A stretch of 64,000 nt of DNA from Bacteroidota bacterium (GCA_016866335.1 VGMT01000011.1:4033-68032), one strand, 5' to 3'; positions 10,283 to 56,823 are shown, numbered from the stretch's first letter. A program made the numbers and translations. The notes: generated by a model from the sequence alone, not told the origin.

Positions 10283-10429
10283 GCCCGCGGCAGGGATTGA
10301 AAGGGCTACCCCGCAAAGGTGCCGAAGCCTTGCCCGCTAGGTGCGGAGGCGACGTTAGGAGCCCCCGCAAACCAGCTGGGCCAGCCTTTCGGCAACTGCG
10401 GAGTAGCCCAGAAAGCCCGTAGCCGCCCC
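10283..10429 (+). repeat. Rod-like structured repeat, copy A (extended Flavo-1-like; possible ncRNA)
   Basis: Termini GCGGCAGGGATTG...AAAGCCCGTAGCCGCCC; nested stems GGGCTAC/GTAGCCC, CCGCA/TGCGG, TGCCGAA/TTCGGCA, GCGG/CCGC. Confidence 0.8.
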
Positions 10430-10457
10430 AGAAATCCCCAAAACCGATTAAATCGCT

Positions 10458-11222
10458 TTAATCTGCCAACTCAAGCAGCGTAGGGCAGTGGTCCGAATGT
10501 ACTGCGTTTTGCAGCAGTCCAGCCGACCTGAGCTTGGGCCTGAGCGACTCAGAAACAAACTGATAATCAATCCTCCAGCCTTTGTTGTTCGCTCGGGCAT
10601 TGGCCCGAAAACTCCACCAAGAATACTGCTGCAAGTCCGGATTCAGCGCCCGAAAACCATCTATCCAGCCTTCGGCCAAAAAGGCATCTACCCAGGCGCG
10701 CTCCTCGGGCAAAAATCCCGTACTGTTCTTGTTCGAAACCGGGTTGTGAATGTCGATTTCCCTATGGCAAATGTTTACATCGCCGGCAATAAGCACCTCA
10801 GGCCGCTGCTGTAAAAGACCCGAAGCCCATTGCCGAAAGTCCTCTAAAAACAGGTATTTCACGTCCTGCCGCTCCTCGCCCGAGGTCCCACTTGGAAAAT
10901 ACGCACTCACCACCGTACGGCCTCCAAAATCGGAACGAATTACCCGTCCCTCGGCATCGTGCTGGGCAATTCCCATTCCGCAAACAACTTGGTCAGCCGG
11001 CATTTTCGATAAAATCCCCACGCCGCTGTAGCCCTTTTTTTGAGCAGGATTCAGGTAAATGTGGTAGCCCATTTCCTTTAGGGGTGTCCAATCCACTTGA
11101 TCTTCCATGGCTTTTAGCTCTTGCAGGCAAAGTACATCCGGGTTTTCAGTGCGGAGCCACTGTAGCAAGCCTTTGTTGATGGCCGAGCGGATTCCGTTCA
11201 GGTTGTAGGAGATGATTTTCAT
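10458..11222 (-). CDS. xth: Exodeoxyribonuclease III
   Basis: SYNLNGIR, LQELK, GYSGV, EGR, GDVNICH, GWRIDY, SDHCP. Confidence 0.95.
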   Translation of the reverse strand: MKIISYNLNGIRSAINKGLLQWLRTENPDVLCLQELKAMEDQVDWTPLKEMGYHIYLNPAQKKGYSGVGILSKMPADQVVCGMGIAQHDAEGRVIRSDFGGRTVVSAYFPSGTSGEERQDVKYLFLEDFRQWASGLLQQRPEVLIAGDVNICHREIDIHNPVSNKNSTGFLPEERAWVDAFLAEGWIDGFRALNPDLQQYSWWSFRANARANNKGWRIDYQFVSESLRPKLRSAGLLQNAVHSDHCPTLLELAD

Positions 11223-11230
11223 AGGAATGC

Positions 11231-12469: not shown

Positions 12470-12612
12470 TTTGGGCGGCTGCGGGCTTTCCACTGTAGCT
12501 CACTTGCCGGCAGGGGCAGGGGCTTCGTGCGGGCGGGGCTTCCTCTGGTCGCCGCGCCCGCTCGGCCCCTGCGCCTGCCGTCTTCGCTCACTGCCGTTGC
12601 AATCCCTGCCGC
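12470..12612 (-). repeat. Rod-like structured repeat, copy B (141/143 identical to copy C)
   Basis: Direct comparison with 25281..25423 shows 2 mismatches; stems CGGCAGG/CCTGCCG, GCAGGGGC/GCCCCTGC, GCGGGC/GCCCGC. Confidence 0.92.
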
Positions 12613-12686
12613 AATCCTCAAGGCCTAACTCTTAAACATGTACACAACAACTTGGGGGTGATTGAAATATTGTTTTTCCTTCAGCG

Positions 12687-12707
12687 TTGTGGTATTAAAT
12701 ACAATAA
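12687..12707. promoter_or_regulatory. Putative NrtR-family operator upstream of the GH3 gene
   Basis: TTGTGGTATTAAATACAATAA, a 21-bp imperfect palindrome with a GT-N7-AC core. Confidence 0.65.
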
Positions 12708-12749
12708 GTATTTGTACCTTTCGGGACCGATAACCACAAAGTTACAAAA

Positions 12750-15077
12750 ATGTCCATACACCAATCCGAACGGTCTCTTTTTGTTTTTTGTTTATTGCTC
12801 TTGCTGTTTTGTGTAAAGCCTTCTAAAATGCCTGCTCAGATGAACTGGACCGAAATTGATGTTCAGGCTGAAGCGATTTTAAAAACCATGTCGTTAAAAC
12901 AAAAAGTAGGGCAGACCTGCCAGATCACGGTAGAGGGTATTCTGAGATTTAATCCCGATGGCACTTTGCCTTTGCCTCTTCAAGTGAATGGTGAAGAGTT
13001 GAGTGAGGCTGTGCAAACGTATAAAGTGGGTAGCATTCTCAATGCTCCTGGCCGGGCCCTTCCACGAACTGAATGGCTGAAACTCATTCAAGCCATTCAT
13101 GCACCCTATGTTAAAAAGGAAATTGATATTCCTATACTATATGGTGTGGATGCCATTCACGGGGCTAATTATGTATTAGGAGCTACCTTATTTCCACAGG
13201 AAATTGGATTGGCAGCCACGTTTAATGTTGATTTGGCGCGGCAATTTGGAGAAGTCACTGCCGTGGAAACCCGTTCTTCGGGTGTTCCTTGGAATTTTTC
13301 ACCGGTATTGGATTTGGGACGGCAACCGCTATGGTCTCGTTTTTTTGAAACCCTAGGTGAAGATCCTAAACTGGCATCTGTGTTGGGTGCTTCTATTGTT
13401 AAAGGATATCAAGGTGATTTGAACCAATCTAAATTGGGTCCCGACCGGGTCCTAGCTTGCATGAAGCATTTTGTGGGCTACAGCGCTTCTGCTTCTGGCC
13501 GCGACCGTACACCCGCTATTGTTTCGCCCCGAGATTTGACGGAATTATACCTGGTACCTTTTAAGTCAGCTGTTGAAGCAGGAGCTCTAACTGTTATGAT
13601 CAATAGTGCTTCTCTGAACGGTATGCCGGGTCACATCAATTCTCATTTAATTACGGATGTATTGAAAAATAAGTGGGGTTTTAAGGGTTTCGCTGTTACC
13701 GATTGGGAAGATATCCTATTTCTGGACCGTGTTCATCAGGTGGCGGCTTCACACAAAGATGCCATCGCTATGGCAATCAATGCCGGAATTGATTTGAGTA
13801 TGGTTCCCTTAAATCCTCAATACAAAGAATACTGCCGATTGTTGGAAGAATTGGTGCTGGAAGGAGGTGTGCCAATGGCGCGCCTTGACGATGCGGTGAA
13901 ACGCATTTTACGGGTAAAATTGGCAGCAGGTTTGTTTGATGTACCTAGCAAAAAAAACAAAACAGTTCCAATCACACTGCAGTCTGAGTCAGCTGTTTTA
14001 GCTGCAAAACAAGCGGTTTCAGAGTCGTTAACCTTATTGAAAAATGAACATTCGGTTCTGCCGCTTAAACCTAATTCTTCAATTCTAGTTTTGGGGCAAG
14101 CAGCTGCCGACCGCCGATTCTGGAATGGAGCCTGGACACACACGTGGCAAGGGAGAGATTCCAGTTATTTTTCAACGGATATTTCCCTGTTGAAGGAATG
14201 GCAACAGCGGGCCCAAACGCAGCAAGGCAAGGTTGATTACCTTGTTGGTAGTTCTTGGTCAGAAAGCACCGGTATACCCAACGAGGGGGCTGGGTTAACC
14301 CCTCAAAATCAAAAATCGATTGAATCGGCCGATGTGTGTGTGGTGTTCGTTTCAGAATGGCCAGGAACCGAAAAACCAGGCGATGAGGAAAATCCGTTTG
14401 TAACCCAAAATCAAATGGACTTGGTCCATGAACTTAAGGCTGCAGGTAAACGGGTTGTTGTGGTGCTAATGTTAGGTCGCCCTAAATTGCTGGGTAGTAT
14501 TCTTGACGATGCAGATGCTATTGTTCACGCCTATTTGCCGGGTGAACATTTTACCCAACCTTTTCTAGATAAGATATATGGATCTGCTGATTTTTCAGGC
14601 CGACTCCCATTTACTTATCCTAGGTATCCGGGCCGGTGGGAGCATTACGACCATGCCAACAGCGAAACCATCGCCAAAGACAATTCTGGGAATGGATACA
14701 ATCCGCTCTTTGATTTTGGTTTCGGCCTTTCCTACGCTACCTGGTCGGTCGATGCCAGTTCAATTTCGGCAGATACGCTAAGGTCTGCCGATACGGTATG
14801 GCTTGAAGTGCGCTTGCGGCACAATGCCGACCGACCATGCCAAGTGACAGTGCCGGTTTTTGGTAGCAGAAGAAATCTGCCCATTGCTCAACGGGGAAAA
14901 TACCTGATTGACTTTCAAAAGAAATGGGTGCCACAGGGAAATTCTGCGCTCTTCCGCTTTCCTCTTTCGGTTTCTCAATTTGAATTTTCAGATTACAACG
15001 GAAATTGGACTCAGGCTCGTGGCCCAATTCGCCTGGATGTGTTCAATTCCACTCTAAACGTTTACCTAGAACCCTAA
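12750..15077 (+). CDS. Glycoside hydrolase family 3 beta-glucosidase, exported
   Basis: YGVDAIHG, WSRFFETLGEDP, MKHF, nucleophile VTDWED, SGRLPFTYP, FGFGLSY; signal peptide. Confidence 0.93.
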   Translation: MSIHQSERSLFVFCLLLLLFCVKPSKMPAQMNWTEIDVQAEAILKTMSLKQKVGQTCQITVEGILRFNPDGTLPLPLQVNGEELSEAVQTYKVGSILNAPGRALPRTEWLKLIQAIHAPYVKKEIDIPILYGVDAIHGANYVLGATLFPQEIGLAATFNVDLARQFGEVTAVETRSSGVPWNFSPVLDLGRQPLWSRFFETLGEDPKLASVLGASIVKGYQGDLNQSKLGPDRVLACMKHFVGYSASASGRDRTPAIVSPRDLTELYLVPFKSAVEAGALTVMINSASLNGMPGHINSHLITDVLKNKWGFKGFAVTDWEDILFLDRVHQVAASHKDAIAMAINAGIDLSMVPLNPQYKEYCRLLEELVLEGGVPMARLDDAVKRILRVKLAAGLFDVPSKKNKTVPITLQSESAVLAAKQAVSESLTLLKNEHSVLPLKPNSSILVLGQAAADRRFWNGAWTHTWQGRDSSYFSTDISLLKEWQQRAQTQQGKVDYLVGSSWSESTGIPNEGAGLTPQNQKSIESADVCVVFVSEWPGTEKPGDEENPFVTQNQMDLVHELKAAGKRVVVVLMLGRPKLLGSILDDADAIVHAYLPGEHFTQPFLDKIYGSADFSGRLPFTYPRYPGRWEHYDHANSETIAKDNSGNGYNPLFDFGFGLSYATWSVDASSISADTLRSADTVWLEVRLRHNADRPCQVTVPVFGSRRNLPIAQRGKYLIDFQKKWVPQGNSALFRFPLSVSQFEFSDYNGNWTQARGPIRLDVFNSTLNVYLEP

Positions 15078-15086
15078 ACAACTGTT

Positions 15087-15791
15087 ATGGTCTATAAAAT
15101 TAAATTTGACCAGTTCTTTTCCTACTCCTTTTCCATGGACTGCCTGATTTTTGGCTTCTCCAATGGAAAAATTCATATCCTACTGGTAAAACGCGCAATG
15201 GAACCTTACGGAGGATATTGGGCAATTCCTGGAGATTTAGTGTATCCAGACGAAGATTTACCCAATGCTGCAGAACGTATTCTGGAAGAACTTACCGAAC
15301 TTAAGAATGTGGCCCTGCGCCAAGGTGGCGTTTTCGGAAAGCCCAACAGGCATCCTCAAGGCCGGGTCATAACCAATGCCTATCTGGCTATGGTTCGCAT
15401 GAATGAAACCAACCCTCAACCTTCATCTTGGGTGGAGGAATTGCGTTGGGTTCCTGTTGATGAAGTAGAAATGCTCGCCTTTGATCACAATGAAATTTTA
15501 ACGGCAACTTACCAGCGCCTTAAAGAGCGTTTTATCCATGAACCCATTTGTTTTGATATGCTGCCCTTGAAGTTTACACTAAATGAACTTCAACAACTCT
15601 ATGAATATGCCTTTGGTATTTGCATCGATAAACCAAATTTTAGAAAACGGATTAAAAATCTGCCATTGATCGAGCTGAAGGAGCGTCAGGAAAATGTAAA
15701 GCACCGACCCGCAACCCTGTATTCCTTTGATTGGGAAAAATACAAGAGCCTGGTAAGTGAGGGCCACTTTGAATTCAATATGTGGCTGTAA
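15087..15791 (+). CDS. NrtR-family transcriptional regulator (degenerate Nudix plus winged HTH)
   Basis: Nudix box eroded (RILEELTEL), LAFDHNEI, C-terminal FTLNELQQLYE...DKPNFRKRI...RPATLY. Confidence 0.88.
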   Translation: MVYKIKFDQFFSYSFSMDCLIFGFSNGKIHILLVKRAMEPYGGYWAIPGDLVYPDEDLPNAAERILEELTELKNVALRQGGVFGKPNRHPQGRVITNAYLAMVRMNETNPQPSSWVEELRWVPVDEVEMLAFDHNEILTATYQRLKERFIHEPICFDMLPLKFTLNELQQLYEYAFGICIDKPNFRKRIKNLPLIELKERQENVKHRPATLYSFDWEKYKSLVSEGHFEFNMWL

Positions 15792-15825
15792 GGCCATTTT
15801 AATGGAAAATTAGTCAAAGTTTAAC

Positions 15826-15846
15826 TTATTGTAAAAAATACTATAT
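15826..15846. promoter_or_regulatory. Putative NrtR-family operator overlapping the susC -7 element (TATATTTG, 15842-15849)
   Basis: TTATTGTAAAAAATACTATAT, GT-N7-AC core. Confidence 0.65.
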
Positions 15847-15866
15847 TTGACTTCTAATCTTTAGGT

Positions 15867-18800
15867 ATGATTCGTTTTCTACTGATTCCTTTATCGTTTC
15901 TCCTTTCATTGGTTTTCAACCTTTCTGCCCAGGTTGTTAAAGGTTTGGTGAGCGATTCCAAGGGGCAACCCATCCCATTTGTCAATGTGTTATCTAAGGG
16001 TAGTGGCTCGGGGACTCAAACAGATTTAAACGGTATTTTCCAATTGAGTGTTTTAGATTCTTTGGGTTCTACCCTTGAGTTTAGTGCAATTGGGTTTAAA
16101 AGGCAGTTTATGCCTGTTGGCGGTTCTGAGTTTGTAAAAGTGACTCTTCTAGATGATGTTCAGCGCTTGTCTGAATATCAGATGGTAGGGTATGGAACTT
16201 CCTCTCGCAAGGAAATGACAGCCGCATCTAGCCAAGTAGAAGGGGAAGATATAACCAAATTGAATGTTTCGCGGATGGATCAGGCCCTCCAAGGCCAAAT
16301 GGCCGGAGTAAGCGTAACCACAAATTCAGGGAGTCCTGGAGGGTCTTCAAGCATTCGGATACGTGGCTTATCCACCTTTGGCGACAACGATCCCTTAATT
16401 TTGGTCGATGGTGTTGTGTATGATTCTGAAGGTTTAAATGCATTGAATCCCTCTGATATAGAGTCGGTGCAGGTTTTGAAGGATGCATCGGCCGGTATTT
16501 ATGGCGTTAGGGCAGCCAATGGGGTTATTTTGGTAACCACTAAGCAAGGTAAAAAAGGTGCTCCTATGCGCATCACGTATGATGGGTATGCTGGAATTCA
16601 ACAGACTGCTCGTCAATTAAATTTGTTGAATGCTCAGGAATACGCTGTAATAAAAAACGAAATGTTTGCTATGGGCGGACAACCTCTGCCCTTTAACAAT
16701 ACCAATGTAGGTGTTGGTACGCCTTGGCAAGACAGCGTATTTTCCTCGGCTCCCATTCAATCGCATCAACTGGGAATTCAGGGAGGTTCCGAAAAGTCCA
16801 CCTATTCTATGGGTTTGGGTTATTTTAGTCAAGATGGTATTGTAGGCGGAAATAAATCCCACTTTTCAAGATACAATGGGCGGTTGAATTTTACCCATGT
16901 GCTTTCAAAGCGCGTACGATTCAATTCTGTTTTGTTGTTTTCAAGTGAATTCCGCCGAACCCTACCTGAAAATGGAATAGGTTCCGTATTGTACAATACA
17001 ATTAATGCCTTTCCTACGGCTCCCGTTCGTCAACCCGATGGTCGTTTTTCTTACTTGGAAGAAGTGAACGACATTATCAATCCCATTGCTCAAATTCAAA
17101 ATCAATACAATGGAGTTCAAACCATGAAATGGGTTGGTAAAGAAGAAGTTGAAATCGATATCTTTAAAGGATTAACCTTTACCAATCGCTTTAATTTTAA
17201 TTACGCAACGCTTCAAAATAAGGTGTTCTCCCCTTTGGTGTGGTATGGGCAAGGTAAATTTGCGAATACAGCCATCAATGAGCAATTGGAATCGCCTATG
17301 GTGGCTATTGCCGATAGTTTTATGGTGGAACGGGGAGCTGCAGTATATGAAGAAAATACTTCATTTCTTGATCTATCCTACGAAGGGTTCATGAACTATG
17401 AGGCTACTGTGGCTGAGCACCATAGATTGAAGGGTTTGATTGGATTTTCGTTGTTTGAGCGGAAAGGGGAGTCGCTATCGGGCATTGGCTATGGAATTCC
17501 CAACAATTCTTTAGAATTTGCTGACATCTCAGCGAATACCGCCGCCGGAGGTTTTTTGAACAATACCTTCAGTTGGGAATTTACAGAACGCTTGTTGTCT
17601 TACTTTGGTCGGATAGAATATGCCTACAAGGAAAAGTATATGGTTTCGGCTTTGTTGCGGCGCGATGGCAGCAGTAAATTTGGTCCGAATAACCGATATG
17701 GTTGGTTCCCTACCATTGCCGGAGCTTGGGTAATATCAGACGAAGGTTTTTACTCCAGTTCATTCATTGATTATTTGAAGTTACGTAGCAGTATAGGCTT
17801 ATCTGGGAACGATCAAATTCCCAATTTTGCCTATCGTGCTTTGTTAAACGGAGAAGGGGTTTACGTATTTGATGATGTGATTACTTCTGGAGTGGCAATT
17901 GGTACTGCTGCCAATCCAGACTTAAAATGGGAATCTACACTGCAAATAAATGTTGGTGTTGATTTTTCATTGTTCAACTCCATTCAATTGTCATTGGATG
18001 TGTACGAAAAACGGACATCCAATTTGTTGTTTCAGCCCGATGTTTCAGCTTTGATTGGTTCTTATGGTCCGGGAGGATTCCCGCCTGTAATTAATGCTGG
18101 CGATGTATTAAATCGTGGTTTTGAGTTGGAACTGGCCTATCAAACTCCTGTCCGTTCTCCATTCCAATTTTCAGGAAAATACACCTTTGGAATGGTGCAC
18201 AACGAGGTGCTTTCGGTCCCTGTGGGAATTGATTACCTACCGGGAGCAGCCTTTGGGGTAGGTGGCGATGTGGCTACCCGTTTCCAGGTTGGACAGCCTA
18301 TTGGGTATTTTTTTGGATTTGAAACCAACGGTGTTTTTCAATCTCAAGAACAAATTGACAATGCTCCCCAGCAAAACGGTGCTCAGCCCGGTGATTTAAT
18401 TTTTGTAGATCAAAACGGAGATGGGGTCATTAATTTCAATGACGACTCTGACAAGGCCTTTTTGGGTTCCCCCATTCCTGATTTCACTATGGGTTTGATG
18501 CTGAATGCCGGATTTAAGGGGTTTGATTTGTCGGTCAATCTGTATGCGGCAGTAGGGCAGGAGGCCATCCGAAACTACGAGCGCCAACAGCCCTTCGCCA
18601 ACCAGTTGGATTATGTAATTGACCGCTGGGTAGGTCCAGGTTCTACCAACGAGCATCACAGGCTAACTACAGAACCCACTCGAAACGCCATTTTTTCCTC
18701 ATATTTCGTTGAAGATGCCTCTTTTTTACGCATTCGCAACATTCAATTGGGGTACAGCTTACCCACAAAATGGCTTTCAAAACTTAAGATTCAGGGAATT

Positions 18801-18956
18801 CGAATTTATGGGTCGGTAAACAATGCCTTTACCTTTACAGCATATAAAGGGTTTGACCCTGAATTTTCTTCGGCTTCGATTTTGAGCGCTGGAGTTGACA
18901 ATGGTTTTTACCCTCAAGCCCGTTCATTTATGGGCGGTGTTCAAATTAAATTTTAA
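15867..18956 (+). CDS. SusC-like TonB-dependent transporter
   Basis: PLILVDG, LKDASAGIYGVRAANGVILVTTK plug, NPDLKWE, C-terminal YPQARSF...IKF. Confidence 0.96.
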   Translation: MIRFLLIPLSFLLSLVFNLSAQVVKGLVSDSKGQPIPFVNVLSKGSGSGTQTDLNGIFQLSVLDSLGSTLEFSAIGFKRQFMPVGGSEFVKVTLLDDVQRLSEYQMVGYGTSSRKEMTAASSQVEGEDITKLNVSRMDQALQGQMAGVSVTTNSGSPGGSSSIRIRGLSTFGDNDPLILVDGVVYDSEGLNALNPSDIESVQVLKDASAGIYGVRAANGVILVTTKQGKKGAPMRITYDGYAGIQQTARQLNLLNAQEYAVIKNEMFAMGGQPLPFNNTNVGVGTPWQDSVFSSAPIQSHQLGIQGGSEKSTYSMGLGYFSQDGIVGGNKSHFSRYNGRLNFTHVLSKRVRFNSVLLFSSEFRRTLPENGIGSVLYNTINAFPTAPVRQPDGRFSYLEEVNDIINPIAQIQNQYNGVQTMKWVGKEEVEIDIFKGLTFTNRFNFNYATLQNKVFSPLVWYGQGKFANTAINEQLESPMVAIADSFMVERGAAVYEENTSFLDLSYEGFMNYEATVAEHHRLKGLIGFSLFERKGESLSGIGYGIPNNSLEFADISANTAAGGFLNNTFSWEFTERLLSYFGRIEYAYKEKYMVSALLRRDGSSKFGPNNRYGWFPTIAGAWVISDEGFYSSSFIDYLKLRSSIGLSGNDQIPNFAYRALLNGEGVYVFDDVITSGVAIGTAANPDLKWESTLQINVGVDFSLFNSIQLSLDVYEKRTSNLLFQPDVSALIGSYGPGGFPPVINAGDVLNRGFELELAYQTPVRSPFQFSGKYTFGMVHNEVLSVPVGIDYLPGAAFGVGGDVATRFQVGQPIGYFFGFETNGVFQSQEQIDNAPQQNGAQPGDLIFVDQNGDGVINFNDDSDKAFLGSPIPDFTMGLMLNAGFKGFDLSVNLYAAVGQEAIRNYERQQPFANQLDYVIDRWVGPGSTNEHHRLTTEPTRNAIFSSYFVEDASFLRIRNIQLGYSLPTKWLSKLKIQGIRIYGSVNNAFTFTAYKGFDPEFSSASILSAGVDNGFYPQARSFMGGVQIKF

Positions 18957-18960
18957 TCCG

Positions 18961-20421
18961 ATGAAAACGGTTTTACGTATCGCTGCCTTTTTCTGCCTGA
19001 CGCTTCCTTTTTCTTCCTGCGATGATTTCCTAGATGTTAATCCTCCCTATTCACAGGATGCTGAAAATTACTTTAGGACTCCCGAAGATTATCAACGTGC
19101 CCTAGTTGGAGCTTACGATTTATTGCAGGCTTCCTTCTTATCGGTATGGATTGGAGAAATCGCATCGGATAATACCATAGCTGGAGGAGAAAGCTTCAAC
19201 GACACCCAAGGCCTACACCAAATTGATGGTATGCAGCATGGAGCCGTCAATACCGAATTGAGAAATGTTTTTCGTTGGAATTACGCCGGCATTGCCAGGG
19301 TCAATTTTATTATGGAAAACAAAGACAATATTGATTTTCCTGGAAAAGCACAACTTTTGGCTGAGGCACGTTTTTTAAGAGCGTTCTATTATTTCGAGTT
19401 GACTAAATTTTTTGGAGACATTCCACTCATTATTGATGAACGCCTAGGAATCGAAGATGCGGCTAAACGGCCAAGAGTACCTCAGCCCCAAGTTTATGAC
19501 CAAATTGTAGCCGATTTATTGGCGTGCATTCCTGATTTGTCAACAGTAGCTGCGCAAAAGGGAAGAGTAACCAAAGCCGCAGCACAAGCCTTATTGGGTA
19601 AAGCCTATTTGTATCAAAATAAGTATGCGGATGCCTTACCGGTGTTCGAGGAAATTATTCAGTCAGGCCAATTTGCCTTACATCCAAATTATTCGGAATT
19701 GTGGACGTTGGTAAATGAGCAAAATTCGGAAACCATTTTTAGCGTAGAATATTCCGGCTTAGAAGGAGGAAGTTATGGCTGTTTGGTTTGCCTTGAAGGA
19801 AATGCAGGTCCCGGATTTCACGGCATACGGCAGTACACCGGGCCTGTTTATGGCGATGGTAACAGCTACAATTTACCTACCCCAGAATTGTATGCAGCAT
19901 TTTCTCAAATTGACCCAAGGCGAGATGCAACTGTTTTAGATATTGAAGCGTTCATTGCAGCTCAACCGAATCCTTCCGCCATCACCTATGCTGTCGGCGG
20001 TGGCGGTCACACTGGATATTACAACAACAAATACATCAAGCGTCAGGGTGAAATTGGATTGCCCGATAATGATTTGACAAGCCCCCTGAACTACAAGGTA
20101 ATCCGCTATGCCGATGTGCTTTTGATGGCGGCCGAAGCTCATCTGATGACAGGCAATAAACCGCAGGCTCAACAGTATGTAAATCAGGTTCGAAGCCGGG
20201 TACAAATTCCTGGAATTTCCGTAAATTCAATCGATGATATTTTAAAAGAACGAAGATTGGAACTTGCTTGCGAAGGTCACCGCTTTTTTGATTTGGTCCG
20301 TACAGGAAAGGCGGCTGATTTTATCGCTGGGTATGTTCCTTCAAAACATGATTTGTTCCCTATACCCCAAGTTGAAATTGATTTGGCCGGTGGATCATGG
20401 ATGCAAAATCCCGGATATTAA
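18961..20421 (+). CDS. SusD-like glycan-binding lipoprotein
   Basis: Lipobox FSSC-DDFL, EARFLRAFYYF, RYADVLLMAAEA, ERRLELACEGHRFFDLVR, QNPGY. Confidence 0.95.
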   Translation: MKTVLRIAAFFCLTLPFSSCDDFLDVNPPYSQDAENYFRTPEDYQRALVGAYDLLQASFLSVWIGEIASDNTIAGGESFNDTQGLHQIDGMQHGAVNTELRNVFRWNYAGIARVNFIMENKDNIDFPGKAQLLAEARFLRAFYYFELTKFFGDIPLIIDERLGIEDAAKRPRVPQPQVYDQIVADLLACIPDLSTVAAQKGRVTKAAAQALLGKAYLYQNKYADALPVFEEIIQSGQFALHPNYSELWTLVNEQNSETIFSVEYSGLEGGSYGCLVCLEGNAGPGFHGIRQYTGPVYGDGNSYNLPTPELYAAFSQIDPRRDATVLDIEAFIAAQPNPSAITYAVGGGGHTGYYNNKYIKRQGEIGLPDNDLTSPLNYKVIRYADVLLMAAEAHLMTGNKPQAQQYVNQVRSRVQIPGISVNSIDDILKERRLELACEGHRFFDLVRTGKAADFIAGYVPSKHDLFPIPQVEIDLAGGSWMQNPGY

Positions 20422-20432
20422 TTACTTGAATT

Positions 20433-21290
20433 ATGAAACATATAGCATTTTATCTACTGGGTTTTATTCTAATTGGAAGCGCTTGCCAGCAAACCGATCC
20501 TGAGCTGGGGCCACCACCCACCGAACAGGATGCTCAAATTTTTATGGAAGTTTCACCCAACTCCAACAACATTCTTCTATTTCGCTGCGGAAATCAACAA
20601 CTTCTAGCTATCTGGGATTTTGGCAATCAAACCGGAGCCAAGGGCACCTCTGTAGAAGGGCGTTTCCCATACGCAGGAACCTATACAGTTCAGGTACGGG
20701 TTTTTAATAAAGGAGGTAGCCGTACCAATTCCATTACTGTTACCATTGCCCAAGACGACCTGTCTTTGCTCGACCATCCTATTTTTAATGCCCTTACAGG
20801 CGGTCCTCAAAATGGGGGCATTAAAACCTGGCGCATTGATTCAATGGCTTCCGGCCACATGGGCGTTGGTCCCGACCCCGAAAGTGCCGCAGGCGCCATT
20901 CCTGAATGGTGGGCAGCAAGTCCTGCCGACAAATCCGGTTGTGGGATGTACGATGATAGATTTACCTTTTCACTCAGTGGATTCGGTTTTACCATGCAAA
21001 CCAATGGAGATGTATACGTTCACAATACCATTGCTAATCAATTTCCAGGTTCATTTATGAATAAAGGAGACTACACGGCACCCTTCGATGACAACATAAC
21101 CTCTTCATGGAACCTGATTGAAGAGGGAGAAAATTCATTTCTAGAAATTTCAGGCAGCGCATTCCTAGGTTTTTACACGGGGGTACGTACCTACCGAATT
21201 TTAGAATTTTCCGATTCTCATATAAGCCTTCAATATAAACACCATGCTGGTGGTTTGCATTGGTACATTAAACTCGTTCCTGCCCAATGA
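20433..21290 (+). CDS. PKD-domain surface lipoprotein (probable glycan-binding protein)
   Basis: Lipobox GSAC, PKD WDFGN...GTYTV, C-terminal GVGP/WW/DD domain; position after susD. Confidence 0.75.
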   Translation: MKHIAFYLLGFILIGSACQQTDPELGPPPTEQDAQIFMEVSPNSNNILLFRCGNQQLLAIWDFGNQTGAKGTSVEGRFPYAGTYTVQVRVFNKGGSRTNSITVTIAQDDLSLLDHPIFNALTGGPQNGGIKTWRIDSMASGHMGVGPDPESAAGAIPEWWAASPADKSGCGMYDDRFTFSLSGFGFTMQTNGDVYVHNTIANQFPGSFMNKGDYTAPFDDNITSSWNLIEEGENSFLEISGSAFLGFYTGVRTYRILEFSDSHISLQYKHHAGGLHWYIKLVPAQ

Positions 21291-22387
21291 TGTATTCTCT
21301 TTTGTCGGTTTCAGCTCTGGCAGCTGTCCTTACTCTTTCTAGTTGTGAATCTGATCCCGTTAATCAGGTGATTTTGCCAGAAAATCTTCAGATTTCCACT
21401 TTAGTTTCTGAAACTGGCCTAGCTGAAATAACAGCTCAAGCTGACTTTACTAATTTTTACACCGCCACGGTTTGGAATGGTTCAGATTCCGTTCATTTTC
21501 AGGAAACCTCTGGCAATTTTTCCTGGCAATTGACTGCCCCAGGCACATACGCCTTCAGGGTTCGTGCTCACACTACCGCTACCGATTTCATTGAAAAATT
21601 AGATACTCTTATCTGGTTTGTCGATACCAGCAACTCTGGTAGCTTCCCTTCAAGCGGGTATTCCACTCCAATTTCATACCCTGGTTATACCTTGGTTTGG
21701 AACGATGAGTTTTCAGGAACCGCCTTATCGTCCGATTGGGTGTTTGACATTGGAACAGGAAATTTCGGCTGGGGAAACAATGAACTTCAATACTATACCA
21801 ACCAAAACGTTAGAGTTCTGAAAGGAGTTCTTGAGATTACGGCTAAAAAGGAGCCATTCAATACCTCTCAGTATACATCTACCCGAATCAAAACTCTAGG
21901 TCAAAAATCGGTGAAATATGGCCGCATTGATATCCGCGCAGCCATGCCACAAGGTCAAGGGATTTGGCCCGCTTTGTGGATGCTTGGTGATGCGTTTTCA
22001 TCCATTGGATGGCCTCACTGTGGAGAAATAGATATTATGGAAATGATTGGAGGCCAGGGCAACAACGACCGCACAGCCCATGGCACTGCACATTGGTTTA
22101 ACAACGGCCATGCCAGCCATACCGACAGTAAAACTATTCCTTCAGGTACCCTTGCCGATAAGTTCCATGTTTACAGCATAATATGGAACGCTCAATCCAT
22201 TACTTGGCTGTTTGATGACCAGGTATACAATACATTGTCCATTACAGATGCTCAATTTTCAGCGTTTCATGAACCTTTCTTCTTCATATTTAATGTAGCA
22301 GTGGGTGGAAACTGGCCAGGCCCACCAAATGCCTCTACCAGTTTTCCTCAATCTATGTATGTGGATTATGTTCGGGTTTTTCAATAA
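21287..22387 (+). CDS. Glycoside hydrolase family 16 endo-beta-1,3-glucanase (laminarinase), lipoprotein
   Basis: LVWNDEF, GWGNNELQYY, WPALWM, catalytic EIDIME, NVAVGGNWPG; lipobox LSSC. Confidence 0.93.
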   Translation: MMYSLLSVSALAAVLTLSSCESDPVNQVILPENLQISTLVSETGLAEITAQADFTNFYTATVWNGSDSVHFQETSGNFSWQLTAPGTYAFRVRAHTTATDFIEKLDTLIWFVDTSNSGSFPSSGYSTPISYPGYTLVWNDEFSGTALSSDWVFDIGTGNFGWGNNELQYYTNQNVRVLKGVLEITAKKEPFNTSQYTSTRIKTLGQKSVKYGRIDIRAAMPQGQGIWPALWMLGDAFSSIGWPHCGEIDIMEMIGGQGNNDRTAHGTAHWFNNGHASHTDSKTIPSGTLADKFHVYSIIWNAQSITWLFDDQVYNTLSITDAQFSAFHEPFFFIFNVAVGGNWPGPPNASTSFPQSMYVDYVRVFQ

Positions 22388-22393
22388 TTTCCC

Positions 22394-22414
22394 TTATTGT
22401 ATTTAATACAATTA
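22394..22414. promoter_or_regulatory. Putative NrtR-family operator upstream of the T9SS cargo gene
   Basis: TTATTGTATTTAATACAATTA; perfect inner palindrome ATTGTATT-T-AATACAAT. Confidence 0.7.
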
Positions 22415-22456
22415 TTATTTACTTTTAACTTACAATTAAACTAAAACATTCTTCTT

Positions 22457-23569
22457 ATGAAAAAACTTTTTCTTGCAATGATGCTTCCAACCGCCCTGAT
22501 GGCTCAGGTTGAAGGAACATGGAAACTGGCTCAACAATCTGGTGCTTTGGGTGTAGGCCCCAACAAAGGCAATATTTCCTGGTGGAGCAATTCCCCAACC
22601 GATTTAACAACGCGCGCCTGTTTGTTTGATGACTCTATTACCTTCAATACCAACGGTCAAATGTTGCATTACATGGATGGCAATACTTGGGTAGAGGTAT
22701 GGCAAGGCGCTGGCGCCGATGGCTGTGGTACTCCTGTAGCGCCCCACGATGGTTCTGGTCAATACACTTGGAGTTTTGATGCTACTCAAGGAACTTTGAC
22801 TGTTAATGGATTGGGTGCCCATATGGGTTTGGCTAAGGTGATTAACGGTGCCGAAATTAACAACCCCAATTTGGCGGCCTCTTCTATTACCTATGAAGCT
22901 GCACTTTCCAACAACAACCAAACTTTGACCTTAGATATTAACTTCGGTGGTGGCTACTGGCGTTTTGTTTACAATAAAATCACTTCAATCCCTGTTCCCC
23001 TTCCAAAGGTTACGTTCCGAGTCGATATGGCAGATTACACCGGATCCACCGCCAACGGTGTCTTCCTAAACGGTGAAATGAATGGCTGGTGCGGTTCTTG
23101 CGCTCCTATGGTGAATACCTCGGCAGACATCTGGGAACTGCAAGTAGATGTGCCTGCAGGACCAGTTCAATACAAATTTACCGTTGACGGCTGGTCCGAT
23201 AAAGAGAATTTCGTTGGCGGTGAGGCCTGTGTAGACACAGTTAACGATGGTTTCTTCAACCGCGTATACGATGTAACAGGCGATGCAGTTCTTGCCCTTG
23301 TTTGCTTCAACAGCTGTACAGACTGCGCCACCACAGGTATTGAATCAAACGGTATTTCCGTAAACGTGTACCCCAATCCCACCGAAGATTTAGTTCAGGT
23401 TACTTCATCCAATTCTGTAATTTCAATAACTTTATTTGACCTTGTTGGTCGTAAGGTGGCTGAAAACCATTCTGATGTATTGAATGTAGCTCATTTAAAC
23501 AGCGGTACCTACCGTTTGGTAGTAGAGCACGAAAAAGGAATCTATTCAACCACCCTAATTAAACGGTAA
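22457..23569 (+). CDS. T9SS type A cargo protein with putative glycan-binding domains
   Basis: Signal peptide, GVGP/WW/DD domain, CBM48/Ig-like VTFRVDM...YKF, C-terminal VYPNP...GTY...LIKR. Confidence 0.8.
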   Translation: MKKLFLAMMLPTALMAQVEGTWKLAQQSGALGVGPNKGNISWWSNSPTDLTTRACLFDDSITFNTNGQMLHYMDGNTWVEVWQGAGADGCGTPVAPHDGSGQYTWSFDATQGTLTVNGLGAHMGLAKVINGAEINNPNLAASSITYEAALSNNNQTLTLDINFGGGYWRFVYNKITSIPVPLPKVTFRVDMADYTGSTANGVFLNGEMNGWCGSCAPMVNTSADIWELQVDVPAGPVQYKFTVDGWSDKENFVGGEACVDTVNDGFFNRVYDVTGDAVLALVCFNSCTDCATTGIESNGISVNVYPNPTEDLVQVTSSNSVISITLFDLVGRKVAENHSDVLNVAHLNSGTYRLVVEHEKGIYSTTLIKR

Positions 23570-23593
23570 TTTGGTTTTCTTTGAATAGCATTG

Positions 23594-23626
23594 CAGAGGT
23601 GGGGGAAACTCCACCTCTGTTTTTTT
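23594..23626 (+). terminator. Intrinsic terminator after the T9SS cargo gene
   Basis: CAGAGGTGGGG-GAAA-CTCCACCTCTG followed by T7. Confidence 0.85.
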
Positions 23627-23638
23627 AATCTATCGCCT

Positions 23639-25279: not shown

Positions 25280-25280
25280 T

Positions 25281-25423
25281 TTTGGGCGGCTGCGGGCTTT
25301 CCACTGTAGCTCACTTGCCGGCAGGGGCAGGGGCTTCGTGCGGGCGGGGCTTCCTCTGGTCGCCGCGCCCGCTCGGCCCTTGCTCCTGCCGTCTTCGCTC
25401 ACTGCCGTTGCAATCCCTGCCGC
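25281..25423 (-). repeat. Rod-like structured repeat, copy C (direct repeat of copy B)
   Basis: 143 bp, differs from 12470..12612 only at 25380 and 25384; begins 2 nt after the SSS stop codon. Confidence 0.92.
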
Positions 25424-27142: not shown

Positions 27143-28029
27143 GGATGAAATTGAATGAGCTGTTCTTTAATAAAGCTACGGTCTAGGTGGGTGTAAATTT
27201 CAGTGGTGGTAATCGATGCATGCCCCAGCAATTCTTGAACCACCCGCAAGTCGGCGCCCCCTTCTATCAAATGTGTTGCAAAGGAATGCCTTAAGGAATG
27301 GGGCCCAATATTTTTTCGAATTCCAGCCAAGGCAAGGTGCTTTTTTAGGCTTAAAAATACCCATTGCCTCGACAAGCCTTTGCCCCTGCGGTTCAAAAAA
27401 AGGGTGTCGTTGTGGCCTTTGGCTTTCGGAATATCTGACCGAACCGATGTTAGGTATTGACGAATAGCCAAAACCGCGGAATCGGCAACGGGCACCAGCC
27501 TTTCCTTGTCGCCCTTGCCAATCACGCGAATGAAACCATCGTCAAAATACAGCTGCGAGCAGGTTAGATTGACCAATTCTGAAACCCGCAATCCGCAGGC
27601 ATACAGCAATTGAAAAATGGCATAATCGCGTATTCCATCGGGCCTGCTGCGATCTACAATTTCAAGCAGGGCGTCCACTTCTTGAATTTCCAGGTAATGG
27701 GGTAGGGGCTTTGATAGTTCCGGCATATCCACCTCAGTACTGGGGTCGAGTTCACAGAGTTTTTCTTGCCGTAAAAACCGGTAAAAAGCACGCAATCCCG
27801 AAATGAATCGAGCTTGTGTTCGGGCAGAAATACCCAAATCATGGAGTTCGGCTAAAAAGTGCTGCAATTCAGCAACATCGGCCTGAAAAACCGCTATTTT
27901 TTGCCTTTCCAAAAAACCGAGCCAAGACCGTACATCATGGTCGTAGGCTTTCAGGCTGTTGTCGCTAAGCCCTTGCTCTAAGCTAAGCCATCGGTAAAAG
28001 CGCTCTGGCAGGTCGGTGCTTGTTGACAT
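27130..28029 (-). CDS. xerD: Site-specific tyrosine recombinase XerD
   Basis: GLRVSEL, GKGDKERLVP, HSLRHSFATHL, LLGHASITTTEIYTH. Confidence 0.9.
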   Translation of the reverse strand: MSTSTDLPERFYRWLSLEQGLSDNSLKAYDHDVRSWLGFLERQKIAVFQADVAELQHFLAELHDLGISARTQARFISGLRAFYRFLRQEKLCELDPSTEVDMPELSKPLPHYLEIQEVDALLEIVDRSRPDGIRDYAIFQLLYACGLRVSELVNLTCSQLYFDDGFIRVIGKGDKERLVPVADSAVLAIRQYLTSVRSDIPKAKGHNDTLFLNRRGKGLSRQWVFLSLKKHLALAGIRKNIGPHSLRHSFATHLIEGGADLRVVQELLGHASITTTEIYTHLDRSFIKEQLIQFHPWNR

Positions 28030-50833: not shown

Positions 50834-50978
50834 ACCGCGGCCCGGATGGAGCGGAAAGCCCGCAACGTGAGGGCTTAACCTGCGCGTGCTGCGGAGGCCC
50901 GAGGAACGAGGGACCCCGCAAAGCCGCTGCAGGTTTTGCCCGCACGGAGGACTTGCAGCAACAGCCGGTAAGCCGCCC
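50834..50978 (+). repeat. Rod-like structured repeat, copy D
   Basis: GCGGCCCGGATG...CAGCCGGTAAGCCGCCC; stems CGTG/CACG, GGGC/GCCC, AACCTGC/GCAGGTT, GCGG/CCGC. Confidence 0.75.
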
Positions 50979-53486: not shown

Positions 53487-55298
53487 ATGGAAAACCGGCA
53501 GCGCATATACCTGGTTTTAATTGTATTGGTGGGCCTTATTTTTTGGGTTCGTTTGTTTTTTCTGCAGGGTTTGGACGATCGATTTAAATTGGCTGCCGAC
53601 ACCTACAGCATTCGCCGATTGGTGAACCAACCGCTCAGGGGTAATATTTTTGACCGGAATGGGAAGGTTTTGGCTACCAACGATTATGCCTTTGATTTGA
53701 TGGTTATTCCCCTTGAAACGAAGGAAATGGATACCCTTGCTTTGGCCACTCTTACCGAGGTTCCTATTGAAGAAATGAGGAACGCATGGAAAAAGGTGAA
53801 TAAGAACATTGAAAAGAAACGGCGCTACAAACGCCAACCGCAACCCTTAATTCGGGATTTGTCTCAAAAATCCATCGCCGCTTTTCAAGAAAAAATGTAC
53901 CGATTCCCTGGCCTTTACGTTGAAAAACGATCGGTACGCCGATACCCAGAACCCTTTGCTGCGCATGCCCTAGGTTATGCGCGCGAAGCCGATGCTGCGG
54001 TGCTTGAAAAAGACGCCTATTACCAGCCGGGCGATTACGTCGGAGTGGCGGGAATTGAAAGGGCATACGAGCCATATCTGCGCGGGGTAAAAGGCGTGCG
54101 TAAAATTTATGTAGATGTACGAAACAACGAAAAGGGAAGCTTTATGGATGGGCTGTACGATACCCTTCCGGTTCCTGGTGCAGACTTAACCAGTACCCTA
54201 GACATTGAACTTCAAAAGTACGGTGAGCAGTTGATGCAGGGCAAACGCGGAGCTATTGTTGCCATTGAACCAGCTACGGGCGAAATTCTGGTACTGGTTT
54301 CCTCGCCCTCTTTTGACCCAAATTGGATGGTGGGCCGAAACCTTCGGCAGCACTACGGTAAATTGATTTTAGATCCGGCAAAACCCATGTTGAATAGAGC
54401 TGTAATGGATGGTTACCCCCCAGGTTCTACCTTTAAGGTAATGAATGCCATGTTGGGGTTGCAGGCTGGAGTAATTAACCCTGCGACGGTGGTGCCTTGT
54501 GGGGGTGGATTCCGAATTTCGTCGGCGCATACCGTAGGTTGCCATGGTCACCCCAACGCCGATTTGCGCTTTTCAATTACCACCAGCTGCAATGCCTACT
54601 ATTGCCATGTATTCAATGAATTAACCAAAACCAATGCCTCAGCCCGACAAGCCTACACAGCCTGGTATTTGGGGGCACAACGCTTTGGATTTGGAACAAA
54701 ACTCGGCACCGATATTCCAGAGGCAAAAACAGGCTTATTGCCCTCGCCTGAATACTACGACAGGGTTCATGGCCAAGGAAAATGGCGGGGACTTACCATA
54801 ATTTCGCTGGGAATTGGGCAGGGCGAACTAAAGGCCAACGCACTTCAAATAGCTAATTTGGCCACCATTATAGCCAACCGTGGATACTTTATTTCCCCGC
54901 ATTTGGGCAAAGCCCTAAACGGAAAACCATTGCCCGATAGTTTGTTTAAACGAAATTACACTCGAATTGATACCGCCCATTTTCAAATTGCTTGGGAGGG
55001 CATGTATGGAGCGGTACATAAACCGGGAGGTACGGCAAAAATTGCCCGGCTCGATTCCATTGCAGTTTACGGCAAAACAGGAACCGCTCAAAATCCGCAT
55101 GGCAAAGACCACTCCGTCTTTATGGCCTTCGCACCCTCAACATCGCCAAAAATTGCCATTGGGGTGCTGGTTGAGAACGGCGGATTCGGAGCTACCTACG
55201 CGGCTCCTATTGCCTCTTTGCTCATGGAAAAATACCTGACCGATACCATAACCCGGCCGGAACTCGAAGAGCGCCTGCTGCAAACTCGATTGGAATGA
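53487..55298 (+). CDS. mrdA: Penicillin-binding protein 2
   Basis: RGNIFDRNG, STFK (SxxK), SCN (SxN), KTGT; ATG 53487 preferred. Confidence 0.94.
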   Translation: MENRQRIYLVLIVLVGLIFWVRLFFLQGLDDRFKLAADTYSIRRLVNQPLRGNIFDRNGKVLATNDYAFDLMVIPLETKEMDTLALATLTEVPIEEMRNAWKKVNKNIEKKRRYKRQPQPLIRDLSQKSIAAFQEKMYRFPGLYVEKRSVRRYPEPFAAHALGYAREADAAVLEKDAYYQPGDYVGVAGIERAYEPYLRGVKGVRKIYVDVRNNEKGSFMDGLYDTLPVPGADLTSTLDIELQKYGEQLMQGKRGAIVAIEPATGEILVLVSSPSFDPNWMVGRNLRQHYGKLILDPAKPMLNRAVMDGYPPGSTFKVMNAMLGLQAGVINPATVVPCGGGFRISSAHTVGCHGHPNADLRFSITTSCNAYYCHVFNELTKTNASARQAYTAWYLGAQRFGFGTKLGTDIPEAKTGLLPSPEYYDRVHGQGKWRGLTIISLGIGQGELKANALQIANLATIIANRGYFISPHLGKALNGKPLPDSLFKRNYTRIDTAHFQIAWEGMYGAVHKPGGTAKIARLDSIAVYGKTGTAQNPHGKDHSVFMAFAPSTSPKIAIGVLVENGGFGATYAAPIASLLMEKYLTDTITRPELEERLLQTRLE

Positions 55299-56674
55299 GT
55301 ACAAACGATCGCCGTGGAGGTTTTGTAGGTCAGGTTGACTGGGTTTTGGTTGGCATATACCTGATTTTGGTCGTTGTAGGCTGGATGCATATTTGGTCTG
55401 CTGTCCCCAGCCAGGAAAGGCTTTCACCCTTTGATTTTTCAAGTGAGGCAGGCAAACAGTTCGCCTGGATACTAATTTGCTTTTTGGTGGGGGCAGTCTT
55501 GATGCTAACCGACATGAAACTGTATTATGTTTTGCGCTGGCCCTTTTTCGCCCTTGGATTGGCTTTGCTGCTATTGGTTTTGGCCATTGGGCAAGAGGTT
55601 GGAGGAAATAAAAGCTGGATTGTTCTGAACTCCTTCATTAAAATTCAACCCTCAGAATTTGCAAAGTACTTTACCGCTTTGGCCTTGGCAGGTTATTTGT
55701 CAACCCCCCTTCATTTGGCTCCTCCGGCTGCCCGTTGGCCTACGTTTTTCTGGATTTTTATGGCTCCCATAACACTGGTTATGAGTTTGGCCGATTTGCT
55801 TTTGGGCCAAGGCCTTCAAATGAAACGCGTAGTATATTGGTTAAAGGCTTTTGTCATTATTGGTGTGCCCGCAATTTTGGTTTTGGCCGAAAAGGACACC
55901 GGCTCCACCTTGGTGTACGCTGCATTTGTGTTGGCCATGTTTCGTTTTGGGCTCTATTTGCTCCTATTCTATTTGGGTATCGGATTGGCGTTTTTATTTC
56001 TTACCTCTTTGCTTATTCCACCTTGGATTCTGGTCTTAGGTTTGGTGGTTTTATCGCTAGGTATTTGGGTTTTTATTTTAGGACGAAGCCCAAAAGCCAT
56101 CCTTCCTATGGGCTTTTTTTTAGTTCTACTGTCGGGCTTTACCATGGGTGGGCGTTGGGTTTTCGACCATGTATTGATGCCCCACCAACGCACCCGGATT
56201 ATGGTTTTGTTTAACCCTGATTTAGACCCCAAAGGCAGCGGTTGGAATGTGAACAATTCTAAAATGGCCATTGGTTCTGGCTCTTGGTTTGGTAAGGGGT
56301 TTTTGAATGGAACCTTAACCCAATTGAATTTTGTGCCCAAGCAGCATACCGATTTTATTTTTTCGGCCATAGGCGAACAATGGGGTTTGCTCGGCACTAC
56401 GGTGGTTATTTTGCTGTTTCTAACCCTGCTGATGCGCCTTATTTTGCGCGCCGAAATGCAGAGGTCTCCCTTCGCCAAAGCATTCGGTTACATTGTTGCT
56501 TGCATTCTGTTCTTTCACTTTTTCATGAACGTTGGCACAACCATTGGTTTGGCACCCGCGGTAGGGGTTCCCTTGCCCTTTGTGAGTTATGGCGGCTCCA
56601 GTTTGCTGGGCTTTACCTTGCTGTTGTTCACGTTTATAAAATTGGACGCTCAAAATTTAGAGGTTTTAAGGTAG
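55295..56674 (+). CDS. rodA: Peptidoglycan glycosyltransferase RodA
   Basis: IQPSEFAK, AIGSG, HTDFIFS, PFVSYGGSS. Confidence 0.94.
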   Translation: MSTNDRRGGFVGQVDWVLVGIYLILVVVGWMHIWSAVPSQERLSPFDFSSEAGKQFAWILICFLVGAVLMLTDMKLYYVLRWPFFALGLALLLLVLAIGQEVGGNKSWIVLNSFIKIQPSEFAKYFTALALAGYLSTPLHLAPPAARWPTFFWIFMAPITLVMSLADLLLGQGLQMKRVVYWLKAFVIIGVPAILVLAEKDTGSTLVYAAFVLAMFRFGLYLLLFYLGIGLAFLFLTSLLIPPWILVLGLVVLSLGIWVFILGRSPKAILPMGFFLVLLSGFTMGGRWVFDHVLMPHQRTRIMVLFNPDLDPKGSGWNVNNSKMAIGSGSWFGKGFLNGTLTQLNFVPKQHTDFIFSAIGEQWGLLGTTVVILLFLTLLMRLILRAEMQRSPFAKAFGYIVACILFFHFFMNVGTTIGLAPAVGVPLPFVSYGGSSLLGFTLLLFTFIKLDAQNLEVLR

Positions 56675-56675
56675 T

Positions 56676-56823
56676 GGGGCGGCTTTTCGGGCTGTACGCT
56701 TGTATTCAACCCCGCCAAGCTTGGTTGGGGCTGGGCCGTGCGGGGTCCCTGCGGGCCTCCGCCGGCTTGGCCCCAACTGCAAGCTTGGCAGGGTTTCATA
56801 CCGCTGCCATCCCGGCCGCGGGC
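56676..56823 (-). repeat. Rod-like structured repeat, copy E
   Basis: Minus strand GCGGCCGGGATG...CAGCCCGAAAAGCCGCCC; stems GCCAAGCTTG/CAAGCTTGGC, GTTGGGGC/GCCCCAAC, GCCG/CGGC; begins 2 nt after the rodA stop. Confidence 0.8.

Follow-up and report, generated by a model that had tools for sequence, protein, structure and literature searches.

A 64,000-nucleotide stretch of a Bacteroidota genome (GCA_016866335.1 VGMT01000011.1:4033-68032, hereafter the window) carries five GC-rich, rod-like intergenic elements, two of which bound a polysaccharide-utilization gene block. Based on covariance models, comparative genomics and the positions of more than 200 further copies in the source genome, we find that these rods are the long, GC-rich, high-copy branch of Flavo-1 (RF01705). 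We tentatively favor the reading that they are old, vertically inherited palindromes resembling repetitive extragenic palindromes (REPs), in which the fold-back of DNA would be selected, and that they are not RNA genes. The features of the window concerned are the following, with bit scores referring to R1, our covariance model of the rods.

10283..10429, plus strand: copy A, between convergent genes, of the commonest interior type; 112.7 bits, rod z-score -5.15.
12470..12612, minus strand: copy B, upstream of rpsF-rpsR-rplI, left direct repeat of the 12.7-kb block; 59.3 bits.
12613..25280, no strand assigned: polysaccharide-utilization block with GH3, NrtR-like regulator, SusC, SusD, PKD, GH16, CBM48/T9SS and SSF transporter (Pfam).
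25281..25423, minus strand: copy C, right direct repeat of the 12.7-kb block, with an ortholog in species G003; 51.3 bits.
50834..50978, plus strand: copy D, with the CGGATG/CAGCCG basal variant; 68.8 bits.
56676..56823, minus strand: copy E, with the GGGATG/CAGCCC basal variant and the most stable rod (z-score -7.67); 66.4 bits.

The five islands had been described in a first-pass annotation made from the sequence alone, and its structural observations hold: the end motifs, coordinates and strands all match the sequence, each copy folds along its whole length as an interrupted rod, the basal stem co-varies around a constant A.G mismatch, and B and C are identical at 141 of 143 positions. With RNA parameters the folds reach -74 to -95 kcal/mol (z-scores -4.3 to -7.7), with none of 200 shuffles as stable. 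The complementary strands of the five copies fold likewise, and both strands fold with DNA parameters as well (z-scores -3.5 to -7.0). Across 41 diverse copies, one basal pair occurs as U-A (25), G-C (13), A-U (2) and C-G (1) and another as C-G (21) and G-C (19), and the A.G mismatch sits within the invariant GAT and A.AGC columns. A, B/C, D and E have little in common in their interiors (mean column identity 66%), which are nevertheless paired in the folds; in the five-way alignment the ends are conserved, together with a central block GCGG-A/C-GGC...CCCCGC. At E<=0.001, R1 recovers exactly the five copies in the window, with 51-113 bits.

The source assembly (G000; 2.45 Mb in 62 contigs, 99% complete, 47% GC) belongs to a small lake Flavobacteriales and holds many more copies. 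Their number goes well past what chance would produce: a strict regular expression found 137 of them, nhmmer 252 (241 near full length) and a hidden Markov model built from all copies 265. A relaxed motif alone caught three more divergent copies, and 241-265 is therefore a lower bound. R1 matched all 150 scored candidates out of 526 in all. The family makes up about 1.4% of this streamlined genome, with about one copy per 10 kb. Its length is nearly fixed, at 138-144 nt in 240 of 241 copies with a mode of 142, and its GC content is 69% compared to 47% for the genome. The copies are diverse: there are 165 clusters at 90% identity, the median pairwise identity is 58% and only 17 of 28,920 pairs are more than 97% identical, while an abundant subfamily unites 110 copies inside 25% distance.

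Per-copy folds give one common shape for all 41 diverse copies; the consensus was taken from these folds because RNAalifold on a plain MAFFT alignment returned five basal pairs only. Outermost lies a 5-bp stem (GCGGC/GCCGC, GCGCC/GGCGC, GGCCC/GGGCC and others), followed by a 3-bp stem and the fixed A.G mismatch. Inside this mismatch are two pairs, the second of which co-varies (U-A 215, G-C 18, A-U 4, C-G 2), and further inward come a tandem G.A, a variable helix, a fixed C.A mismatch (211 of 241 copies) and a long variable rod with the tip GC-GA-C-(4-5 nt)-G-GA-GC. Among 94 distinct members from G000 and other genomes, in an alignment fitted to R1 and thus favoring the structure, both sides change in 42 of the 46 pairs, and the covariation score is 0.453 compared to 0.075-0.114 for slid partners, a value reached by none of 500 shuffles. 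The co-varying basal pairs and the changes on both sides argue that the structure is selected, as the first-pass annotation had proposed. Outside the rod, the 3' flank has a C at +1 in 95% of copies, followed by 65-70% A and hardly any G for 10-20 nt, and the five bases preceding the element tend to GGCCY.

A resemblance of the basal part to Flavo-1 had been noted at the outset, and a direct comparison with Rfam did not reveal it. In the window, an Rfam scan returned a tRNA and nothing else at gathering level, with no Flavo-1 match even at E<=10, and RF01705 gave no match on eight copies of G000 presented as short loci. On the whole of G000 it gave three weak matches (best E 2.2e-4), none above the 42-bit gathering cut-off. 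The link emerged from lower-GC relatives of the rods, found with a pattern of our own: three of these match RF01705 with 46, 27.7 and 27.4 bits, each alignment covering all 76 positions of the model and being interrupted by an apical insertion of 73-83 nt. RF01705 and the rods have the basal core ccGAUuGaAGcGG...CGgAaAGCggGA in common, in which GAT and A.AGC are the invariant elements of the 41 copies. In 41 related genomes, RF01705 matched 24, 11 of them above the cut-off, and R1 matched 21. One related genome contains at least 86 classical Flavo-1 copies of about 77 nt; in the sister genus g4, long forms of 138-153 nt exceed the RF01705 cut-off and R1 matches occur in the same genomes. Sister genera thus contain both the short form (about 77 nt) and the long one (138-153 nt), R1 also aligns short forms of 78-103 nt, and the intermediate L063 is recognized by both models (46 bits for RF01705, 44.8 bits for R1). 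Since intermediates in relatives match both models, while the copies of G000 themselves stay below the Flavo-1 cut-off, the rods are to be placed as a long, GC-rich branch within Flavo-1.

Both branches have the same basal architecture and core with purine-purine internal loops, and both are multi-copy, intergenic, confined to Bacteroidota and free of a fixed tie to transcription. What sets the rods of G000 apart from Flavo-1 is their sub-cut-off score, an additional 5-bp stem on the outside, a copy number above 250 in 2.45 Mb and an inserted GC-rich segment of about 70 nt, whose tip, GCGAC-loop-GGAGC, is itself conserved. Within the genus, R1 matched every scored candidate in all six remaining genomes; in the wider family, four further genera gave 1-18 matches. 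A pattern scan with one genome per species returned 48 stretches of DNA. Those confirmed by R1 come from Bacteroidota-labeled records only, with carriers in Draconibacterium, Prolixibacteraceae, Lentimicrobiaceae, Flavobacteriales, Sphingobacteriaceae, Crocinitomicaceae, a Chryseobacterium metagenome-assembled genome (MAG) and Flavobacterium selenitireducens. Long-form copies number 74 or more in F. selenitireducens, 28 or more in a Sphingobacteriaceae MAG, three in Draconibacterium sediminis and one in D. orientale. In the literature, the motif table of Weinberg et al. (2010) gives Flavo-1 as a Bacteroidetes motif (PMC2864571), and a 2022 review, where it ranks small RNA (sRNA) families, counts it among the most abundant with no function given there (PMC9029176). 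Since 2010, Flavo-1 has ranked with the most numerous Rfam entries, and no function has been assigned to it (PMC9029176, PMC9723704). Our literature search turned up no report assigning it a function or describing the long form; the dCas12f/sigma-E system, judged by the parts of its description that bear on the question, is unrelated to the rods.

Given the Rfam label of Flavo-1 (Gene; sRNA), the rods could be independent sRNA genes with their own promoter on the plus strand, and the first-pass annotation had likewise considered a non-coding RNA. The strong covariation, the RNA-like tandem G.A loops and the strand-specific 3' flank fit such genes. However, the genomic context does not. By our own crude gene calls (the longest open reading frames (ORFs) after masking of the elements, with a coding share of 89% in G000), 80 of 228 copies lie between convergent and 44 between divergent genes, with 51 copies in sense and 53 in antisense orientation between co-directional genes. 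Orientation relative to the genes thus shows no preference and promoter-bearing regions are not avoided; the copies between divergent genes, at a median of 73-112 nt from the gene starts, are probably untranscribed. No conserved promoter-like box was found in the 40 nt upstream of the copies and no U-tract downstream of the rod. A conserved upstream module was considered and rejected, as the only similarity came from head-to-head neighbor copies. Selection on a single RNA strand would make G.U far commoner than A.C. Over about 12,700 pair cells, with five columns of fixed or subfamily-fixed states set aside, wobble pairs amount to about 245 G.U compared to about 216 A.C, without an excess on the plus strand. 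Random orientation together with near-equal G.U and A.C argues against an RNA gene. In addition, the published transcriptome of F. psychrophilum reports Flavo-1 hits in either orientation within transcribed regions and many beyond these regions, and so gives no support to dedicated transcription (Guérin et al., 2021; PMC9723704). A set of more than 250 paralogous sRNA genes would, to our knowledge, be unprecedented. We consider independent sRNA genes hardly probable at all, even though contigs from RNA libraries contain copies.

A different role for RNA would be independent of orientation: whichever strand is transcribed would form a rod in an untranslated region (UTR), blocking exonucleases or recruiting an RNA-binding protein, as has been proposed for REPs in 3' UTRs. 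This idea is in line with the near-equal mean folding energies of the two strands (-85.0 and -85.2 kcal/mol) and with the enrichment of copies in convergent regions (35%, 80 of 228, compared to 14.6% expected; p 1e-14). It also fits the position of the 3' side of the copy at a median of 21-30 nt from the stop codons of genes running towards it, and the copies present in contigs of both metatranscriptome runs examined. DNA carry-over of a 250-copy repeat in RNA libraries would, however, give the same contigs, and contigs from DNA sequencing break at copies. A plain exonuclease block needs neither conserved asymmetric motifs nor a fixed length, and the 44 copies between divergent genes are hard to accommodate. 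When wobble pairs are sorted by the expected transcribed strand, sense copies show 39 G.U and 43 A.C and antisense copies 52 and 27, opposite to what selection on RNA predicts. The UTR rod also leaves unexplained the inverted order of neighboring copies described below, and we regard it as quite unlikely.

At the DNA level, the copies prove to be old. The window is collinear with one contig of species G003, in which nhmmer detects orthologs of A, B, C and D and one additional copy; copy E was missed by nhmmer, but a BLAST block of 85% identity spans it. The G003 ortholog of copy D is highly conserved between diverged flanks, the orthologs of copy B in G001 and G003 carry compensatory changes, and the site of copy A is occupied in both species by a copy with a different interior. 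For species G001, 470 kb with 40 copies were compared, at about 83% identity over aligned blocks. Empty sites, which the first-pass annotation had suggested looking for, are few: among 32 G001 sites whose two flanks map to a single G000 contig, nhmmer finds a copy at 27 and three more have a divergent one, so that 30 sites are shared and two are empty. For a G001-only copy the intergenic DNA was too diverged for an alignment of the empty site to set boundaries; indeed, the intergenic DNA flanking copies is mostly unalignable between species. Across 24 orthologous pairs, the ends are most alike (96.6% identity), followed by the tip (95%) and the stems (81-89%). In three Draconibacterium species, a single copy lies behind the same major facilitator superfamily (MFS) transporter gene; this copy is 92-93% identical and the gene itself 89-95%. 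In D. aestuarii, a copy of 83% identity occurs in different surroundings. As a separate observation on the surroundings of copy A, the upstream gene at 9410-10186 lies on another contig in both G001 and G003, with synteny breaking exactly at the left side of the copy (10283); in G003 that gene is internal to its contig.

These data bear on the possibility that the rods are selfish, non-autonomous elements similar to REPINs (hairpin-forming REP doublets) or miniature inverted-repeat transposable elements (MITEs), with their enzyme lost or unrecognized and no function for the host, gene conversion keeping the copies alike. The high copy number with its 110-copy subfamily fits such a spread, and so do the two unshared sites among 32 in the comparison with G001, the extra copy in G003 and the wholesale replacement by another type in two of the 24 orthologous copies, A included. 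On the other hand, the retention of 30 of 32 sites between species of about 83% identity, with pairing intact and in an 89%-coding 2.45-Mb genome, speaks against it, as does the solitary copy that three Draconibacterium species have next to the MFS gene. A mobilizing partner was sought without success. The Y1 transposase family PF01797 has no match in G000 (four candidates scored) or G001, tblastn with seven RAYT proteins of relatives gave a best E of 0.09 on G000, and neither a reverse transcriptase nor TnpB (PF07282) was found in G000. Nor is there a multi-copy protein gene in G000, the sole eight-member 'family' being ORFs across a tandem repeat. Target-site duplications were sought at k = 3-8 over 9 x 14 offsets, and copy-specific matches do not exceed those of permuted flanks. 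The missing transposase and target-site duplication reported for the window thus extend to the whole of this 99%-complete genome, and no RAYT or reverse transcriptase gene, for which the first-pass annotation had proposed to look beside a copy, was found in it. In the relatives, the RAYT genes of G003, G002 and G006 (L163, L164, L168) are flanked by their own arrays of short GTAG-type REPs, distinct from the rods. A second RAYT subfamily (G002, G005, G006; L165, L167, L169, L170) has one rod copy at 80-365 nt, on one side only and without other flanking inverted repeats; these four loci amount to about three independent cases and speak for the selfish element, although this subfamily is a lead and not a partner. 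Three tyrosine recombinases occur in G000, none shown to be linked to the elements. We judge a selfish element to be possible, but unlikely.

Neighboring copies follow an order of their own. Of 63 pairs of adjacent copies separated by less than 4.5 kb, 59 are inverted and four direct (p 1e-13); at 4.5-10 kb the ratio is 38 inverted to 14 direct, and beyond 10 kb it is near parity. The G001 sample agrees (10 to 0 below 4.5 kb and 10 to 2 at 4.5-10 kb), although its sites are orthologous and hence non-independent, and in two unrelated genomes six of the seven pairs below 4.5 kb among the copies listed are inverted. Whether a pair is inverted or direct bears no relation to the direction in which the genes between its copies run, and a composite transposon, considered for inverted pairs about 1.2 kb apart, was discarded because the enclosed DNA is unrelated. 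Of the 13 pairs less than 300 nt apart, 11 are head to head, seven of them with spacings of 47-60 nt and unrelated spacers; these doublets resemble targeted insertion and would suit a selfish element. Similarity between neighbors is only modestly raised. Across the family, the variable basal helix and the inner rod are combined almost freely (r 0.27): in 395 pairs the inner rods are at least 95% alike with basal helices at most 60% alike, and there are sets in which two basal and two inner types appear in every one of the four combinations. Such assortment points to exchange between loci, either of a contiguous inner segment or of whole copies.

The near-identical pair B/C provides a further example. 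Recent copying had been suggested for it; however, both sites are occupied in G003, where the two orthologs are also alike at 141 of 143 positions, whereas G000 and G003 differ from each other (120-123 of 143 alike). The pairs have therefore been homogenized within each species, and from these sequence comparisons the identity of B and C is attributed to concerted evolution of two old direct repeats and not to recent transposition. The 12.7-kb block, a complete polysaccharide-utilization locus, is bounded exactly by these two copies, and it is present in G003 as well. At the same place, G001 has one copy joining both flanks (127-129 of 143 like B and C) without the block, and the first kilobase of the block had no G001 match among the matches listed. 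A second direct pair (140 of 142 identical) flanks 6.9 kb (L133 2661-9593 = G000:C25:20160-27092) encoding a NADAR protein, a calcineurin-like metallophosphoesterase and four proteins without Pfam or PADLOC match; PADLOC gave no match on the block as a whole. Here, G001 and G003 have a single copy and no block, and G004 lacks the block as well, with contigs breaking at the site. A Pfam scan of both blocks found no integrase or transposase family. An 8.3-kb G001-specific block touches a copy on one side only, and four of 10 large size-changing indels touch a copy, a weak enrichment. The head-to-head pair G000:C20:12596-14312 encloses 1.7 kb including a 377-residue ORF, whereas its counterpart G001:C31:13544-13789 spans only 246 nt. 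A 41-nt repeat was seen at the boundary of this head-to-head pair in both species.

These comparisons show that gene conversion takes place among copies and that gene blocks are gained or lost exactly at them; copies also appear to interact by recombination. One far-reaching extension, which we offer as decidedly unlikely, is that the rods serve as docking or exchange sites for accessory gene blocks in freshwater Flavobacteriales, with recombination at a resident copy duplicating that copy. A laminarin-type polysaccharide locus would then enter or leave at a hairpin copy, and the inverted order of neighbors would be the footprint of this traffic. If so, Flavo-1 would be an integron-like or REP-like scaffold for gene exchange in Bacteroidota and not an RNA.

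We therefore return to selection on fold-back of DNA in an old, vertically inherited Flavo-1 lineage, the reading we favor tentatively while stopping short of calling it probable. The rods would form a hairpin in transiently single-stranded DNA or an extruded cruciform. A host protein would read the non-Watson-Crick basal box GAT-N-GA / GA-N-AGC with its tandem G.A, and the same protein would read the tip GC-GA-C-loop-G-GA-GC. The folded sites may separate gene blocks from each other, as boundaries that are structural or prone to recombination, and the family may have grown by rare copying with later partial homogenization or replacement by gene conversion. Of the original interpretation, structure selection, Flavo-1 kinship and the missing transposase are retained. 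The non-coding RNA is not supported, the REPIN-like element lacks its defining RAYT in G000, and recent copying is given up. Several points weigh against the reading we favor. The fold-back is a predicted structure and its binding protein a postulated one, a 142-bp GC-rich palindrome is expected to extrude slowly, and tandem G.A purine-rich internal loops are classic RNA motifs. Copies occur in metatranscriptome contigs, although these show neither strand, ends nor level, and the context counts depend on crude gene calls. The conservation of copies could partly reflect gene conversion and not selection, and any cause of the inverted order of neighbors is conjectural. Finally, there are only two cassette cases, and the DNA between the copies of a third direct pair, which are 94% identical and 15.7 kb apart, is conserved.

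The rods share features with several other known classes of elements and differ from each in some respects. Similar to REPs, bacterial interspersed mosaic elements (BIMEs) and REPINs, they are high-copy extragenic palindromes with compensatory hairpins, alternating orientation of neighbors, long vertical persistence and recombination hot spots. However, REPs are short palindromes of 20-40 bp with a GTAG or CGTC tag, whereas the rods measure 138-144 nt, with hairpins three to four times longer; a cognate RAYT is lacking in G000, the GTAG-type REPs of relatives differ, and the alternation spans kilobases instead of tens of bases. With integron attC sites and clusters of attC sites lacking integron integrases (CALIN) they have in common the conservation of structure over sequence, conserved ends, fixed unpaired bases and a size in the upper attC range, as well as gene blocks between direct copies and a sister genome with a single copy at the 'empty' site. 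Yet, they do not form co-oriented arrays, 59 of 63 near neighbors being inverted, and the loci hold multiple genes and not single promoterless cassettes; by eye, with no search aimed at them, no R''/R' core sites were seen. MITEs such as Correia and ERIC are likewise dispersed, intergenic and foldable at about 100-150 bp, but the rods lack a target-site duplication and a parent insertion sequence, and the whole element is one rod and not a core between terminal inverted repeats. In contrast to elements derived from IS200/IS605 (palindrome-associated transposable elements (PATE), omega-RNA), there is no TnpA or TnpB, near neighbors alternate, and orientation is not significantly tied to the replication strand (local GC skew, odds ratio 1.6, p 0.07).

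New in this analysis are the independence of orientation from flanking genes, the similar frequency of G.U and A.C pairs, the inverted order of neighbors, the sharing of sites between species, the concerted evolution of B and C and the gene blocks at copies. It is the extreme abundance of the family in G000 that exposes these properties, among them folding selection without a tie to transcription and block gain or loss. If the DNA-level reading holds, the 'sRNA gene' label in Rfam would be misleading and Flavo-1 would be a REP-like system of Bacteroidota, with a possible role in swapping loci for carbohydrate use. F. selenitireducens, a cultured carrier with its 74 or more long-form copies, makes this reading testable.

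Some further features were recorded in the window and in the genome. One of the three tyrosine recombinase genes of G000 lies at 27181-27693 (minus strand) of the window, in a 300-residue frame that matches Phage_integrase with 167 bits; copy C is about 1.8 kb away. At 26343-26444 (minus strand) a weak SdsR/RyeB match (29.3 bits compared to a cut-off of 38) ends in a hairpin and U-run and may be an unrelated small RNA or a terminator. A second repeat family of G000, unrelated to the rods, is a tandem DNA repeat whose spurious ORFs recur every 29 residues (about 87 nt); this repeat occupies eight loci, on C17, C1, C22, C45, C58, C59, C6 and C7 (e.g., C7:96047-96367), several of which are at contig ends.

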